Positions 32,800-38,664 of a stretch of 64,000 nt of DNA are shown in pieces (positions within the stretch are counted from its first letter, which is position 1; each line of letters begins with the position of its first letter). A program made the position numbers and the translations under genes. The notes under the pieces were generated by a model. The model did not search any database, was not told the origin of the DNA, and saw only the letters and a list, made by a program, of their open reading frames with translations. Source of the stretch: Eubacterium sp. CAG:252 (GTDB taxonomy: Bacteria > Bacillota > Clostridia > Lachnospirales > Lachnospiraceae); the NCBI GenBank assembly GCA_000436535.1, contig FR886343.1, forward strand, positions 26,691 through 90,690. Reading direction: 5' to 3'.

Positions 32800-32839
32800 G
32801 TGCTCAGCGATAAGCGCTGACACAAAGTATTAAAGATAT

Positions 32840-32911
32840 GGCTTATTGGTCAAGTGGTTAAGACGTCGCCCTCTCACGGCGAAGACAGGGGTTCGACTCC
32901 CCTATAAGCTA
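32840..32911 (+). tRNA. tRNA-Glu (anticodon CUC)
   Basis: Manual cloverleaf: 7-bp acceptor stem with G1.U72, D arm with G18G19, anticodon stem TCGCC/GGCGA with loop CUCUCAC (anticodon CTC), T arm AGGGG-TTCGACT-CCCCT, discriminator A, no encoded CCA. The overall sequence closely resembles Firmicute tRNA-Glu. Confidence 0.85.
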
Positions 32912-32934
32912 TTCTGAGTTATATTCGACTGACA

Positions 32935-33513: not shown

Positions 33514-33573
33514 AAGCAGTTGATGGTGTGTATGTGAGTATAGTTTTAGATTAAATTATGGAGGATGATAAAG

Positions 33574-34809
33574 ATGAATAAGGATTTAATACTTGCGATT
33601 GAGGCTTTGGAAAAAGAAAATGGTATCAGCAAAGAGATTATGTTTGATGCTATTGAAAAGTCTTTAATGGATGAGTATAAGGCAGAATTTGATAAGGCTG
33701 ATAACGGAAGGGTATCACTTGACAGAATAACTGGAGATTTCCATATATATTCAGACAGAACAGTCGTTGAGAAGGTGGAAGTTCCAGAATTCAGAGAGAA
33801 TAAGAAGGAAAAGTATGTTTCTGGTACAGAGATAGCCTTAGAGGATGCAAGAAAGATTAAGCCGGGATGTCAGATAGGTGATGTTATCACTATCGAGGTT
33901 AAGTCTGAAGAGTTCTCAAGAAAGGCTGCAAAAAATGCAAAGAACACCATTGTACAGACAATAAGAGAACAGGAAAAAAATGCACTTTATAATGAGCTTC
34001 ATGATAAGGAAAGAGAAATTATTACAGGTGTAGTACAGAGAATTAACGATAATGGTGATATGACAATTGACATCGGAAGAACACAGGCGGTTCTTAAGGC
34101 TGATGATAAGTCAAGAGATAACAGCAGATTTAAGGATAAGGAATTCAAGCCAGGTGACAGAATAAAGGTATATGTTGTAAGTGTAAGCAACAGAGAAAGA
34201 AACGGACTTGGAATAAAGATATCAAGAAAGTCACCAGAATTCGTTAAGAAGTTATTTGAAGAAGAAGTAACTGAGATTAAGGATGGAACAGTTGAGATTA
34301 TGGCAATCGCAAGAGAAGCTGGTTCCAGAACTAAGATGGCAGTAAGAGCAAATGTTCCACACGTAGACCCAGTTGGCGCATGTGTTGGTATTAACGGCGC
34401 AAGAGTTAAGAATATTGTAAATGAACTTGGCAGCGAGCAGATAGATATCGTTGAGTGGGACAGCAATCCAGCACAGCTTATTGTTAATGCACTCAGCCCT
34501 GCAAAGGTTGTATCAGCAGTCGCTGATGAAGAAGAAAAGAAGGCTAAGATAATTGTATCTGAACAGCAGTTATCACTTGCTATCGGTAAGTCAGGACAGA
34601 ATGTAAGACTTGCAGCAAAGCTTACAGGATATGGTATAGATATAAAGAGCGAAGCAGATGCAGAGGAGTTTGAAGAAGAAACACAGGAAGCAGAGTCAGT
34701 ATATGACAATGAAGAGATAGCTGATAGTGATATTCAGGCTGAACAGGAAACATATCCAGAAGATGAAGAAGCAGATGCAGCCTCTGACACAGAAGTTGTA
34801 GAAGAATAA
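33574..34809 (+). CDS. nusA: Transcription termination/antitermination factor NusA
   Basis: N-terminal RNAP-binding domain, S1 domain, two KH domains (GxxG at IGKSGQNVRLA), and an acidic C-terminal tail; RBS GGAGG 9 nt before the ATG. Confidence 0.95.
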   Translation: MNKDLILAIEALEKENGISKEIMFDAIEKSLMDEYKAEFDKADNGRVSLDRITGDFHIYSDRTVVEKVEVPEFRENKKEKYVSGTEIALEDARKIKPGCQIGDVITIEVKSEEFSRKAAKNAKNTIVQTIREQEKNALYNELHDKEREIITGVVQRINDNGDMTIDIGRTQAVLKADDKSRDNSRFKDKEFKPGDRIKVYVVSVSNRERNGLGIKISRKSPEFVKKLFEEEVTEIKDGTVEIMAIAREAGSRTKMAVRANVPHVDPVGACVGINGARVKNIVNELGSEQIDIVEWDSNPAQLIVNALSPAKVVSAVADEEEKKAKIIVSEQQLSLAIGKSGQNVRLAAKLTGYGIDIKSEADAEEFEEETQEAESVYDNEEIADSDIQAEQETYPEDEEADAASDTEVVEE

Positions 34810-35476: not shown

Positions 35477-38407
35477 ATGGCAAATATGAGAGTTCATGAA
35501 CTGGCAAAGGAATTAAATATTTCTTCAAAGGATATAACTGATATGCTTAGCAATAATGAAAAGAAATACACAGCGATGAGCGGACTTGGAGAAGCTGAGA
35601 TAAACAGCGTAAAAGGAAAGTTCAAGGCTAAGCCAGTTGCTAGTAACAATGCAGTAAAATCAGAACCTAAAAAGGCAGAAGAAAGAAACGTGAAAATACA
35701 GGAAAATAATAAAGTGGAAGAAAAGAAAGTAAATATAGAAAAGAAAGAACAGATAAAGTCAGAGGACGTTAAGGCATCAGCAGAAAAGAAGACATCTGCA
35801 CAGGATGGAGATAAGAAGCACATATCACAGGTATATTTCCCACAGAACAGCCAGAAGTCTGATAACAGAGAAAGAAATAATAACAGAAGAGACGGCAATA
35901 ACGGTAACTATAGAAATAACGACCGTAACAGAGACAACCGTGACAACAGGGATGGAAATAACGGCGGCTATAGAAATAATGACCGTAACAGAGATGGAAA
36001 CGGTGGTTATAGAAATAACGACCGTAACGGTTATGGAAACAGAGACAGCAGAGACGGAAACAACGGCGGCTATAGAAATAATGACCGTAACAGAGATGGA
36101 AACGGCGGTTACAGAAATAACGACCGTAACGGTTATGGAAACAGAGACAACAGAGACGGAAACAACGGCGGCTATAGAAATAATGACCGTAACAGAGATG
36201 GAAACGGTGGTTATAGAAATAATGACCGTAACGGCTATGGAAACAGAGATAACAGAGACGGAAACAACGGCGGCTATAGAAATAATGACCGTAACAGAGA
36301 TGGAAACGGTGGTTATAGAAATAACGACCGTAACGGTTATGGAAACAGAGACAGCAGAGACGGAAACAACGGCGGCTATAGAAATAATGACCGTAATGGA
36401 AACAACAGCCATCGTTCTGGCAGAGACGGTCAGGGTTTTGCAGGTGCAAGAAGAAATGACAGAACTTCTTCAGCACCTAAGGATGATTTCATATTTGAGA
36501 CAAAGCCGGATTCAAGAAGACCAGACTCAAGAAAGAATGACTCAAGAAAGAACGATAGAAAGAAGGATAATGAGGCAAAGGAAAATCTTAAGTTTGCTAA
36601 CAGCAAGCATGAGAAGAAGCCGGCTTCAAAGCAGGAAAAGAAGGAAGAAGAAACAATTAAGCAGCTTATCTTACCTGACAGCCTCACTATAAAGGAACTT
36701 GCTGATAAGATGAAGGTTCAGCCATCAGCTATCGTTAAGAAGTTATTCCTTCAGGGTAAGATTGTTACAATTAATCAGGAAGTGGATTATGATACAGCAG
36801 AAGAGATAGCACTTGAGTTTAACTGCATATGTGACCATGAGGTTAAGGTTGATGTTATTGCAGAACTCCTTAAGGAAGATGAAGAGTCAGAGGACGATAT
36901 GGTAGCAAGACCACCAGTTGTCTGCGTTATGGGTCACGTTGACCATGGTAAGACTTCACTTCTTGATGCAATCAGGGAAACACATGTAACAGACAAGGAA
37001 TCTGGTGGTATTACACAGAAGATTGGCGCTTACATGGTTGATGTAGACGGACAGAAGATTACATTCCTTGATACACCGGGTCATGAAGCGTTTACAGCTA
37101 TGCGTATGCGTGGTGCACAGGCTACAGATATCGCTATTCTTGTAGTAGCAGCCGATGATGGTGTCATGCCACAGACTATTGAGGCTATTAACCATGCCAA
37201 GGCAGCAGGTGTTGAGATTATCGTTGCTGTTAATAAGATTGATAAGCCTAATGCTAATATCGAGAAGGTTAAGCAGGAGCTTACAGAGTATGAACTTATC
37301 GCAGAAGACTGGGGTGGTTCTACTACATTTGTTCCAGTATCAGCACATACTAAGGAAGGTATAGATGAACTTCTTGAAATGATTCTTCTTACAGCTGAGG
37401 TTAATGAATTAAAGGCTAATCCTAACCGTAAGGCAAGAGGTATCGTAATTGAGGCTGAGCTTGATAAGGGACGTGGTCCTGTAGCTACAATACTTGTACA
37501 GAAGGGTACATTAAAAGTTGGTGATGCAGTTGCCGCTGGTTCATGCTATGGTAAGATAAGAGCCATGATAGATGATAAGGGAAGAAGAGTTAAGGAAGCT
37601 ACACCTTCTATGCCAGTTGAGATACTTGGTCTTAATGATGTACCTAATGCCGGTGAGATTATTATGGCTACAGACAACGAAAAGGAAGCAAGAAATATTG
37701 CTGATACATTTATCGCTGAAGGTAAGAAGAAGCTTCTTGATGATACAAAGCATAAGGTATCGCTTGACGCATTATTCGAGCAGATTCAGGCTGGTAATAT
37801 GAAGGAACTTGACCTTATCATAAAGGCAGATGTACAGGGTTCAGTAGAGGCAGTTAAGCAGAGTCTTGTAAAGCTTTCTAATGAAGAGGTTATCGTTAAG
37901 GTTATCCATGGCGGTGTTGGTAATATCAACGAGTCCGATGTAGTTTTAGCATCAGCTTCTAACGCTATTATCATCGGTTTCAACGTAAAGCCGGATAATC
38001 AGGCAAGAATAGTAGCTGAGAGAGAAAAGGTTGACTTAAGACTTTACAGCGTTATTTACAATGCTATCGAGGATGTTGAAGCAGCTCTTAAGGGTATGCT
38101 TGAGCCTATATATGAGGAAAAGATTATCGGTCATGCTGAAATCAGACAGATATTCAAGGCTTCTGGTGTTGGTAACATCGCAGGTGCTATCGTTACAGAA
38201 GGTAGAATGACTAAGGATTCTATTGTAAGAATTACGAGAGATAAAGAGCAGATCTATGAAGGACCTATCGCAACACTTAAGCATTTCAAGGATGATGTCA
38301 AGGAAGTTAAGGCGGGTTCTGAGTGTGGTATGGTATTCGAGAACTTCGGACAGATTCAGGAGGGCGATCTTGTAGAAGCCCACATTATGGTAGAAGTACC
38401 AAGATAA
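35477..38407 (+). CDS. infB: Translation initiation factor IF-2, with a repetitive low-complexity N-terminal region
   Basis: N-terminal [20 protein letters not shown]; G-domain motifs [17 protein letters not shown] and NKID; a C-terminal beta-barrel domain. The N-terminal region carries a tandem R/N/D/G/Y-rich repeat. Confidence 0.97.
35861..36420 (+). repeat. Intragenic tandem repeat in infB, 102-bp period, about 5 copies
   Basis: GGCGGCTATAGAAATAATGACCGTAACAGAGATGGAAAC... recurs at 35963, 36065, 36167, 36269 and 36371, exactly 102 bp apart. Copies 1 and 4 are identical; copies 2 and 3 differ only at about 5 mostly synonymous positions. The 34-aa unit is [28 protein letters not shown](S/N)RDGNN. 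Confidence 0.9.
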
Positions 38408-38460: not shown

Positions 38461-38470
38461 ATGTTACAAA

Positions 38471-38664
38471 GATACCAGGGTCAAAAGGTCTAAACCCACA
38501 TGAGCTTGCTCATAGGTGGGTGAATGACCTTGGGACCCGCCCCAATATGAGCATAAAAGTGGGATGACAGTCCCACGATATGCGAATATTGGGCAGGATT
38601 GTGGGAGTGCGCAGCACGGAACAATCCGTAGGTATCATAGTTGGGGGCTTTTGACCCCAATATC
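38471..38664. repeat. Copy B of the repeated structured intergenic element, bounded by short inverted repeats
   Basis: The core at 38537-38646 is about 88% identical to 31507-31613. It is flanked by GGGTCAAAAG (38478-38487) and CTTTTGACCC (38648-38657). It occupies the infB-rbfA gap, where B. subtilis has ylxP. Confidence 0.6.

Follow-up and report, generated by a model that had tools for sequence, protein, structure and literature searches.

A tandem-repeat array in the N-terminal linker of translation initiation factor IF2 of Eubacterium sp. CAG:252 and its putative role

The infB gene of Eubacterium sp. CAG:252 carries a run of near-identical 102-bp units within the coding sequence of an essential translation factor, and the question raised by this locus is whether such an array is a genuine part of the protein and, if so, what it may do there. 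The source is a short-read metagenomic assembly of the 2013-type CAG kind, which is Lachnospira-related as judged by its nearest genomes. The window analyzed—the whole stretch of DNA, 64 kb in length—was first described in a sequence-only reading, whose claims are taken up below where the evidence bears on them.

Position and composition of the array

The gene is infB, as had been proposed, and the array lies in the N-terminal region of its product. The equivalog TIGR00487 matches residues 395-974 with 824.5 bits (cutoff 424.4), and the gene is part of the operon rimP-nusA-rnpM-ylxQ-infB-rbfA-nrnA-truB, whose members were identified with NCBIfam (rnpM being rnpM/ylxR). CDB68511.1 is an exact match to the IF2 protein of the window, and the sequence is found on a single contig only. 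The protein features two Pfam IF2_N stretches, followed by GTP_EFTU (482-637), EF-G_D2 (652-730), and IF-2 (756-868); the G motifs of the GTPase, including NKID, are visible in the translation. The array is placed in frame between the two IF2_N subdomains (Table 1). It is preceded by a spacer that ends in an 11-residue motif kept family-wide, and it is followed by a basic segment that is near-invariant in 28 aligned Lachnospira IF2 sequences and recognizable throughout the family.

Table 1. Coordinates of infB, its subdomains, the repeat units, and overlapping reading frames in the window
Feature	Position	Strand	Remarks
infB, translation initiation factor IF2 (976 aa)	35477..38407	+	ORF, TIGR00487, Pfam, CDB68511.1
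N1 subdomain, first IF2_N helix bundle, residues 1-50	35477..35626	+	Pfam IF2_N, AF2 helices
Lys/Glu-rich pre-array spacer, residues 51-128	35627..35860	+	K 22%, E 13%
Degenerate proto-unit, 34 residues	35861..35962	+	50-53 of 102 positions unlike the full units
Repeat unit 1, 34 aa, Ser variant	35963..36064	+	identical to unit 4
Repeat unit 2, 34 aa, Asn variant	36065..36166	+	3 differences from unit 1 (2 synonymous)
Repeat unit 3, 34 aa, terminal-type haplotype	36167..36268	+	4 differences from unit 1 (3 synonymous)
Repeat unit 4	36269..36370	+	identical to unit 1; 131-bp exact repeat with 35960-36090
Fifth-unit stub, 26 bp (GGYRNNDR)	36371..36396	+	followed by unique sequence
Basic post-array segment (…GRDGQGF…ENLKF…KKEEETI)	36397..36676	+	net charge +8
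N2 subdomain, second IF2_N, residues 401-449	36677..36823	+	PF04760 best stretch 401-449
GTPase and C-terminal core, residues 482-976	36920..38404	+	Pfam GTP_EFTU, EF-G_D2, IF-2
Overlapping +1-frame ORF, 295 aa	35805..36692	+	repeat by-product, non-gene; 0/6 synonymous
Antisense ORFs	35769-36476 and 35825-36412	-	repeat by-products; 0/6 and 1/6 synonymous

The array is the sole sizeable tandem repeat in the 64 kb. TRF reports it at 35909-36396 with a period of 102, 4.8 copies, 93% matches, and a score of 850. The 102-bp repeat seen by the sequence-only reading is hence real, and all of its full units are in the infB frame. The count has to be changed from about five copies to four full units (35963-36370) and a 26-bp stub: the starts given at 35963, 36065, 36167, and 36269 open full units, and the one at 36371 matches the first 26 bp only. 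This stub is found in every allele, the 0-unit allele included. At the other end, TRF carries the array back to 35909, into a proto-unit whose 3' end (…AACCGTGACAACAGGGATGGAAATAAC) reappears inside 111-bp unit variants of other strains. The unit is a composite of 39 nt and 63 nt, the latter ending in [S/N]RDGNN. In having a unit length divisible by 3 and nearly identical copies arranged head to tail, the locus resembles a VNTR. Copies 1 and 4 are identical in the window sequence, as first read, and exact internal repeats reach 131 bp. The roughly five differences noted between copies 2 and 3 can also be appreciated, at exactly 5 sites. The haplotype of unit 2, u01, is present in other strains as well.

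The composition of the array is 34% Asn, 22% Gly, 21% Arg, 15% Asp, and 8% Tyr; these are the five residues stated earlier, but two Ser occur in addition. Aliphatic residues, Lys, and Glu are absent from the array. It carries a net charge of +10, or +2 per unit, at a fraction charged of 0.35, and its charges are mixed more evenly than in shuffles (z=-4.1)—a well-mixed polyampholyte. Each 34-residue unit contains seven Arg and three Tyr, the latter in a regular spacing of 13/13/8. The motifs GYG and GGY occur 4 and 9 times, respectively, whereas RGG and RG occur 0 and 0 times in the 170-residue array. The earlier label of an RGG-type domain does not apply, since the pattern is one of spaced Tyr and Arg in an Asn/Gly/Asp matrix without an RG dipeptide. 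The label prion-like applies in part: the contents of Asn, Gly, and Tyr and the lack of aliphatics fit; the 35% of Arg plus Asp does not. No further GYRND-type low-complexity segment occurs in the 64 kb.

In an AF2 model, the N1 helices comprise residues 6-13, 17-24, and 39-48 at a pLDDT of 72 to 84, and the N2 helices lie within residues 405-447. Residues 51-404 are predicted to be without secondary structure at a pLDDT of 23 to 31, in a model computed from a 28-sequence alignment—a shallow MSA—with a mean pLDDT of 32.9 and a core also below 60, so that low confidence in the linker discriminates weakly and lends weak support to disorder. The two IF2_N stretches and the lack of secondary structure between them, the latter as judged by this model of low overall quality, place the protein in the "Type 4" N-terminal architecture (PMC12919033); the IF2 of Bacillota has been described as "two HTH separated by a long coil" (PMC12919033). 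Because the array lacks aliphatic residues and predicted secondary structure, it cannot fold.

Evidence for translation within IF2 and for purifying selection

The copies in the window differ at 6 variable sites, and, read in the frame of infB, 5 of these 6 are synonymous changes (P=0.0013 versus random substitution and 0.018 versus transitions only), in line with the earlier remark that the differences are mostly synonymous. The same bias is found in 27 arrays of other species, where 229 of 394 within-array differences (58%) are synonymous versus 21% expected (P=3e-57). In addition, array periods are multiples of 3 in all 47 Lachnospiraceae arrays. The array thus belongs to the translated IF2, and purifying selection acts on the protein that it encodes.

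These observations bear on two alternatives. The first is that the overlapping ORFs of Table 1 encode real proteins. They are 195 to 295 codons long, but these frames stay open because the array draws on a restricted set of codons; variable sites are synonymous at 0/6, 0/6, and 1/6 in them versus 5/6 in infB; and P0137, a database "protein" that runs into the +1 frame, is an IF2 fragment with a frameshift. This alternative can practically be dismissed, and the three frames, present at the exact coordinates given by the sequence-only reading, are spurious as stated there. The second is that the array acts at the level of nucleic acid, either as a recombination or contingency switch of infB or through mRNA structure or an internal start. 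Array length does differ among strains, and shorter IF2 isoforms arise via internal starts in Escherichia coli and Bacillus subtilis (PMC12297416). However, with every period divisible by 3 the frame never shifts, substitutions avoid amino-acid changes, and infB is essential, which makes on/off switching implausible. Neither an in-frame ATG, GTG, or TTG between infB codons 81 and 411 nor an Rfam match within the gene was found. A nucleic-acid-level element is, hence, very improbable. An IF2-beta-like isoform starting after the array was considered separately and rejected: lacking in-frame start codons from 81 to 411, no isoform can begin just after the array.

Copy number, assembly, and age of the locus

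IF2 alleles of 840 to 1013 aa occur that have a core at least 99.5% identical. Alleles of 976, 979, and 985 aa are located on large contigs, the variants being 9-bp NRD indels. A 0-unit allele occurs in apparently healthy populations; its junction k-mers (k of at least 31) are impossible to derive from a 4-unit genome, which proves the allele, and its existence means that the array is not needed under all circumstances. Alleles of 1 to 2 units are found on SPAdes contigs at 2 to 4x coverage, and many 1- to 3-unit alleles are probably the result of short-read collapse. The length polymorphism between strains that had been predicted therefore stands for the 976/979/985-aa alleles and the 0-unit allele, whereas a ladder in steps of 34 aa is partly artefact. 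Taking the 840- to 1013-aa ladder at face value was rejected, given the low coverage of the short alleles and exact repeats of at least 131 bp that are near or above the assembler k.

The concern that the array itself, or its copy number or order, was made by the assembler is nourished by the 2013-type short-read CAG assembly and its 131-bp exact internal repeat, by runs of N inside the arrays of other assemblies (L003 and L044), and by low-coverage contigs holding 1 to 2 units. On the other hand, arrays of four units are present in dozens of assemblies made independently, among them P0122, with 21 contigs of which the largest measures 2.57 Mb, L098, with a contig of 1.8 Mb, and L099, with 29x coverage; copy number appears fairly stable with a mode of 4. 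Every related species has an array. An artefact of assembly is, therefore, an improbable account of the locus, and the doubt is confined to the internal order in the window. Of the other assemblies of the species, 13 hold two or more units, and all 13 have the terminal-type unit in last place; the window has it in third place, with unit 1 repeated after it (order u08-u01-terminal-u08). This order S,N,N,S is unique to the CAG:252 assembly and absent from all others. An order confined to this window may be an artefact of graph traversal, and with it the identity of copies 1 and 4. For work on gut metagenomes, a practical point is that the array region is especially prone to collapse in assembly, to gaps, and to gene calls with frameshifts.

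Across the family, an in-frame array occupies this place in 47 of 52 Lachnospiraceae infB genes. The unit differs from lineage to lineage, yet all keep aromatic, Arg, and polar residues and a net positive linker, with a net charge of +11 to +39 in 48 of 48 loci. The core is 98 to 99% identical between Lachnospira species, whereas the units are re-patterned. Some distant relatives, such as C. fimetarium (GGYRGNN), do contain YRG. A HMMER search with the array alone against 1.84 billion representatives returned two unrelated low-complexity proteins and one frameshifted IF2 fragment, and is uninformative because the composition-bias correction suppressed even true IF2 arrays. No earlier description of tandem repeats in infB was found in the literature searched. 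A very recent expansion, as first suggested, fits less well with a four-unit layout and unit haplotypes shared position by position among strains. Since haplotypes are shared and every Lachnospira relative carries an array, the locus is old and continually remodeled, in a concerted and species-specific way. Tandem-repeat IF2 linkers are the rule in Lachnospiraceae, and the array is a new flavor of a known feature, not a new kind.

A possible reading of this variability is that the linker needs only length and flexibility, so that slippage inflates it with any unit and the sequence has no function beyond spacing. The 0-unit allele exists, linkers range from 167 to 540 aa in the family with units unrelated in detail, the bacterial IF2 N-terminal extension has a dN/dS of ~0.44, termed near-neutral (PMC12919033), and E. 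coli can do without its IDR at 37 °C (PMC11838494). Yet a pure spacer would need neither the regular Tyr spacing, nor the synonymous bias described above, nor the convergence of independent arrays on aromatic, Arg, and polar units with aliphatics excluded, nor a net positive linker in every locus. We regard the neutral reading as unlikely, though worth keeping in mind.

A putative sticker tether of IF2

The reading preferred here, which we hold to be probable with some reserve, is that the array is a basic, flexible Tyr/Arg sticker tether that aids RNA or ribosome association and condensation, as suggested by its composition and by analogy. The array makes up most of the flexible linker that joins the N1 helix bundle to the N2 subdomain and the GTPase core, and this linker would act as a multivalent "sticker and spacer" tether. 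Through weak contacts of its Arg and Tyr with RNA—rRNA and mRNA—and with each other, it would concentrate IF2 locally at ribosomes and transcripts and would permit reversible IF2–RNA condensation during stress, as in the N-terminal IDRs of IF2 from E. coli and Caulobacter. Units would be gained, lost, and homogenized by slippage during replication and by unequal recombination between them; this turnover would render the array species-specific and let strains differ slightly in linker length and valency. With its well-mixed charges and 15% Asp, the array should associate with itself and bind RNA less strongly than a true RGG domain does. Gut anaerobes seldom meet cold, the stress with the clearest phenotype in E. 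coli, which counts against the proposal.

The earlier idea of an RNA-binding or condensing low-complexity domain fits recent experiments on other IF2 N-terminal IDRs: the IDR shows RNA-dependent, salt-sensitive, and cold-enhanced condensation and is required for cold fitness (PMC11838494), and N-terminal truncation of IF2 slows growth under temperature and pH stress (PMC12919033). A Tyr/Arg sticker grammar of phase separation has been described (PMC10888811). For the array, we infer RNA binding and condensation from its composition and from distant homologs with very different linker composition. The linkers of E. coli (domains I-III) and Caulobacter belong to the same protein and the same place between N1 and N2; they are likewise disordered, highly charged (FCR 0.35-0.46), and net positive, their length varies, and some alleles or conditions, at least, do not require them (PMC11838494). 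In contrast, the E. coli linker (51-294) is Glu/Ala/Arg/Lys-rich and helical in part, 24% of its residues are aliphatic, and only one is Tyr, whereas the array described here has no aliphatics, Lys, or Glu, is 34% Asn with 8% spaced Tyr, and consists of near-identical 102-bp units. Neither of the two papers on these N-terminal regions reports tandem repeats, strain-level variation, or the Tyr/Arg/Asn grammar.

Three further systems are similar in part. The LCDs of the FUS family resemble the array in their dense Tyr and Arg in a Gly/polar, hydrophobe-free matrix, in the motifs GYG/GGY, and in belonging to an RNA-handling protein (PMC10888811). However, FUS splits Tyr and Arg between a prion-like domain and RGG domains, whereas the bacterial array interleaves Tyr and Arg in one segment, lacks RGG/RG, and is a polyampholyte with its 15% Asp; the likeness is an analogy only, not homology. 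The N domain of yeast Sup35/eRF3 features PQGGYQQYN oligopeptide repeats next to a charged M domain and forms condensates and prions (PMC13566377, PMC11736011). Sup35 shares with the array the setting of a translational-GTPase N-terminal extension with about five short Gly/Tyr/Asn(Gln)-rich repeats, followed by a charged segment and the GTPase, and some Lachnospiraceae units (GGYQGNRDGQRS, GQGGYQNRNNN) look very similar. The Sup35 N domain is almost uncharged, though, and the 35% charged residues of the array should disfavor amyloid; the array is of independent origin and gives no sign of prion behavior. The repeats of E. coli tolA (PMC3477136) and the Borg repeat IDRs (PMC9879509) are in frame as well, vary in copy number between strains as the array probably does, form a disordered or extended linker subject to slippage or recombination, and are selected to stay in frame. 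Unlike these, the array is located in the gene of an essential translation factor of the cytoplasm, has a long unit of 102 bp, and seems fairly stable in copy number (modal 4) instead of hypervariable.

A more specific proposal, which is speculative and which we consider rather doubtful, is that of a heritable "valency dial" on this essential factor: the number of 34-residue units would set the threshold of IF2–RNA condensation or the strength of tethering to ribosomes or to the acidic NusA tail, slippage alleles of 0 to 5 units would give strains differing translational stress responses, and a Sup35/FUS-like grammar would have evolved independently in Lachnospiraceae, distinct from the proteobacterial Glu/Ala/Lys-rich linker. 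The N1 region of E. coli IF2, attached via a flexible linker, binds NusA (PMC12297416). The acidic NusA tail and the basic IF2 linker are both general features, but they do not covary (rho -0.16, P=0.27; lengths rho -0.07), which gives no support to co-evolution.

IF2 N-terminal extensions have recently been tied to condensation and stress fitness, in Proteobacteria only, where the linkers are Glu/Ala/Lys-rich. The alleles of 0 to 5 units and the many unit designs of Lachnospiraceae form a natural allelic series for testing the effect of valency and sticker identity on a bacterial translation factor. The arrays of this family represent a second solution: repeat linkers of fast turnover that are aromatic, arginine-bearing, polar, net positive, and under purifying selection.

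The array and its place in infB

The array lies in frame within an ORF of 976 codons that belongs to bacterial IF2, as judged by a TIGR00487 score of 824.5 bits (cutoff 424). The ORF features the Pfam domains IF2_N (two stretches, the better one at residues 401–449), GTP_EFTU, EF-G_D2, and IF-2, and the gene order is rimP, nusA, rnpM/ylxR, ylxQ, infB, rbfA, nrnA, and truB. Score, domains, and operon neighbors bear out the assignment to infB made in the sequence-only reading. The protein belongs to the "two HTH + long coil" architecture and has an identical database entry, CDB68511.1 of Eubacterium sp. CAG:252; the closest genomes are those of Lachnospira, namely Eubacterium sp. CAG:248 (95%) and [Lactobacillus] rogosae (85%).

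The array occupies residues of about 145–307, between the first (N1) and the second (N2) IF2_N subdomain, and no other sizeable tandem repeat occurs in the 64-kb window. Tandem Repeats Finder (TRF) reports a single strong array with a period of 102 bp, 4.8 copies, 93% matches, no indels, and a score of 850. The earlier count of about five near-perfect copies is right in the near-identity of the repeats but not in their number: there are four full units, and the copy at 36371 matches over 26 bp only. The identity of the first and fourth copies holds; five sites separate unit 2 from unit 3. The unit is a composite of 39 and 63 nt—the latter part ending in [S/N]RDGNN—a structure that TRF reveals through secondary periods of these lengths. 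The longest exact repeat inside the array is 131 bp.

Coordinates of the infB array and of neighboring features in the window
Feature	Position	Strand	Remark
tRNA-Glu(CTC)	32839–32912	+	directly 5′ of rimP
nusA	33565–34809		
infB ORF	35477–38407		
Upstream flanking motif	35816–35850		
Degenerate proto-unit	35861–35962		~50% diverged
TRF array	35909–36396		
Repeat unit 1	starts 35963		102-bp register; identical to unit 4
Repeat unit 2	starts 36065		102-bp register; 3 sites differ from unit 1
Repeat unit 3	starts 36167		102-bp register; 4 sites differ from unit 1
Repeat unit 4	starts 36269		102-bp register; identical to unit 1
Downstream flanking motifs	36470–36600		
Clostridiales-1 RNA (RF01699)	38470–38637	+	infB–rbfA spacer; full length

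The operon carries further features. In E. coli, the initiator tRNA gene metY occupies the position corresponding to that of the tRNA-Glu gene. NusA lacks AR domains, and its last ~50 codons encode a tail that is strongly acidic. Over 48 Lachnospiraceae loci (L001–L080 set), this tail has a median length of 41 aa and a median net charge of −19.5, and correlates with the IF2 linker neither in charge (rho −0.16) nor in length (rho −0.07). Clostridiales-1 RNA, an orphan structured RNA, is matched with 149 bits (E 1.9e-35). The window shares its spacer length of 304 nt with contigs L083, L085, and L086, but L087 and L088, of the same species, have a spacer of only 103 nt, so the ~200-nt element appears to be present or absent by strain.

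Coding frame and physical character

The four units vary at six sites, and five of these are synonymous in the infB frame (P=0.0013 versus random substitution; P=0.018 with transitions only). The three overlapping ORFs noted before are present at exactly the coordinates reported, and their dismissal as spurious is justified: of the six sites, 0 are synonymous in the +1 ORF, and 0 and 1 in the two antisense frames that are open, and hence these ORFs are by-products of the restricted codon set. A further antisense frame, synonymous at 6/6 sites, is interrupted by stop codons and has its wobble positions in common with infB. A set of 27 arrays from other species holds 394 internal differences, of which 229 are synonymous, compared with 21% expected (P=3e-57).

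The 170-residue array consists of Asn (34%), Gly (22%), Arg (21%), Asp (15%), and Tyr (8%)—dominant, though not exclusive as first described, because of two Ser residues—and lacks Lys, Glu, and aliphatic residues. It carries a net charge of +10 at a charged fraction of 0.35, with positive and negative charges mixed more evenly than in shuffled sequences (z=−4.1), and Tyr residues are spaced by 13, 13, and 8 residues. The low-complexity composition stands, but the array is not an RGG domain: RG and RGG motifs are absent from it (the counts are 9 for GGY, 9 for GYR, and 4 for GYG). The label prion-like fits in part, the array being Asn-rich but highly charged. Lacking hydrophobic residues, such a chain cannot fold. 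AlphaFold2 agrees, giving residues 51–404 no secondary structure (pLDDT 23–31; N1 72–84) in a model that is poor as a whole (mean pLDDT 32.9).

Variation within the species and the family

Same-species alleles, which match exactly in the N-terminus and to at least 99.5% in the IF2 core, measure 840, 874/875, 908, 942/945, 956, 962, 976–979, 985, and 1011/1013 aa. They comprise zero to five units in addition to 3-aa NRD indels and subunit rearrangements. The predicted length polymorphism is solid for two groups. Three samples yielded the 0-unit allele in assemblies at k=119; since it contains junction k-mers that do not occur in a 4-unit genome at any k≥31, it is a genuine 408-bp deletion that keeps the repeat register. 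The 976-, 979-, and 985-aa alleles lie 9-bp NRD insertions apart (111-bp units) and recur on many contigs, some of 1.8 and 2.57 Mb. Four units are present on the contigs of high coverage or megabase length (L097, L098, L099, and L102). The ladder needs caution at 1–2 units, as these alleles stem from SPAdes contigs of 4–8 kb at 2–4x coverage (independent metagenome scan), and repeat collapse at usual k values is likely with exact repeats reaching 131 bp or more. One 0-unit contig (L081, k119_41214; protein P0089) is 99.5% identical to the window upstream and at the infB 5′ end and 89.5% in the 3′ core, which would make it either an interspecies recombinant infB or a chimeric contig.

The "terminal-type" unit—the haplotype of window unit 3—is last in 13/13 other assemblies with at least two units, and the 111-bp unit is second in 5/5 979-aa alleles. 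As unit haplotypes hold their positions between strains, the four-unit layout is older than strain divergence, which argues against the very recent expansion proposed earlier. The window order, with the terminal-type unit third and a second copy of unit 1 behind it, occurs on this one contig only; hence, mis-traversal of the repeat graph may be what makes copies 1 and 4 identical. The array is a trouble spot for assembly and annotation. Loci L003 and L044 have scaffold gaps (runs of N/X) exactly inside it, the match length in L005 (Eubacterium sp. CAG:248) is not a multiple of 3, and the database "protein" P0137 starts as an IF2 N-terminus and then shifts into the +1 frame that the repeat leaves open.

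Among 52 Lachnospiraceae infB loci with complete N-terminus, 47 feature a TRF-detectable array in the corresponding interdomain region, with periods of 18–165 bp that are multiples of 3 without exception. This periodicity, the skew toward synonymous changes, and the lack of internal start codons between codons 81 and 411 and of Rfam matches within infB disfavor a role of the array at the DNA or RNA level. The units are lineage-specific: GYRNDRNNGGYRNDRNNDRNGGYQNRDNNGQNRD in L. rogosae; a 21-residue sequence in a sister species; GGYQGNRDGQRS in C. fessum; GGYRGNNSTGGQGTT in C. fimetarium; NRYQGNRPQGDGS in Anaerocolumna; and, among others, RRDGDRPYNRDNNGQ. All combine aromatic residues, Arg, and polar Asn/Gln/Gly/Asp without aliphatic residues, and the net charge of the whole linker is positive in 48/48 loci (+11 to +39, median +24.5). 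Lachnospira species share an IF2 core of 98–99% identity with a re-patterned array, so the array changes far more rapidly than the remainder of IF2 and is homogenized per species by concerted evolution. An 11-residue motif upstream and a 12-residue motif followed by ENLKF downstream are kept family-wide, and resemble linear interaction motifs set in a disordered linker; these flanking motifs are conserved far outside the genus.

Proposed role of the linker

The array forms a linker that is expressed, selected, disordered, and basic, and in which Tyr and Arg residues recur at regular intervals. A neutral spacer, the main rival, would agree with the existence of a 0-unit allele and with the high unit turnover but not with the synonymous bias within arrays, the convergent unit composition, and the conserved positive charge. 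The N-terminal IDRs of E. coli and Caulobacter IF2 drive condensation that depends on RNA, is sensitive to salt, and is enhanced in the cold; fitness in the cold requires the IDR (PMC11838494). IF2 N-terminal extensions are disordered and predicted to be droplet-promoting, their truncation slows growth under temperature and pH stress, and the Type 4 architecture is found in Bacillota (PMC12919033). N1, on a flexible linker, binds NusA (PMC12297416). On the basis of these other IF2 N-termini, the linker is probably a multivalent tether and sticker array, with the Tyr/Arg sticker grammar taken from PMC10888811; it would enhance both the weak association between IF2 and RNA or ribosomes and the ability of IF2 to condense, and slippage and unequal recombination would furnish length and valency variants.

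Neither IF2 preprint mentions tandem repeats or the Tyr/Arg grammar, and no earlier description of infB tandem repeats was found in the literature searched. The E. coli linker (residues 51–294) consists of Glu (17%), Ala (16%), Arg (13%), and Lys (11%) with 24% aliphatic residues and one Tyr, whereas the array has no aliphatic residues and 8% Tyr. E. coli MG1655 IF2 (L103) also shows imperfect short periodic repeats at residues ~100–220 (…AEEQARREAEE…), so linker growth by tandem duplication may be general, with differing residue grammar. Sup35, a translational GTPase, has oligopeptide repeats at its N-terminus, a likeness by analogy only (PMC13566377, PMC11736011); tolA, like infB, contains a strain-variable intragenic repeat (PMC3477136). 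The infB array is real and coherent, and is chiefly useful as a natural allelic series.
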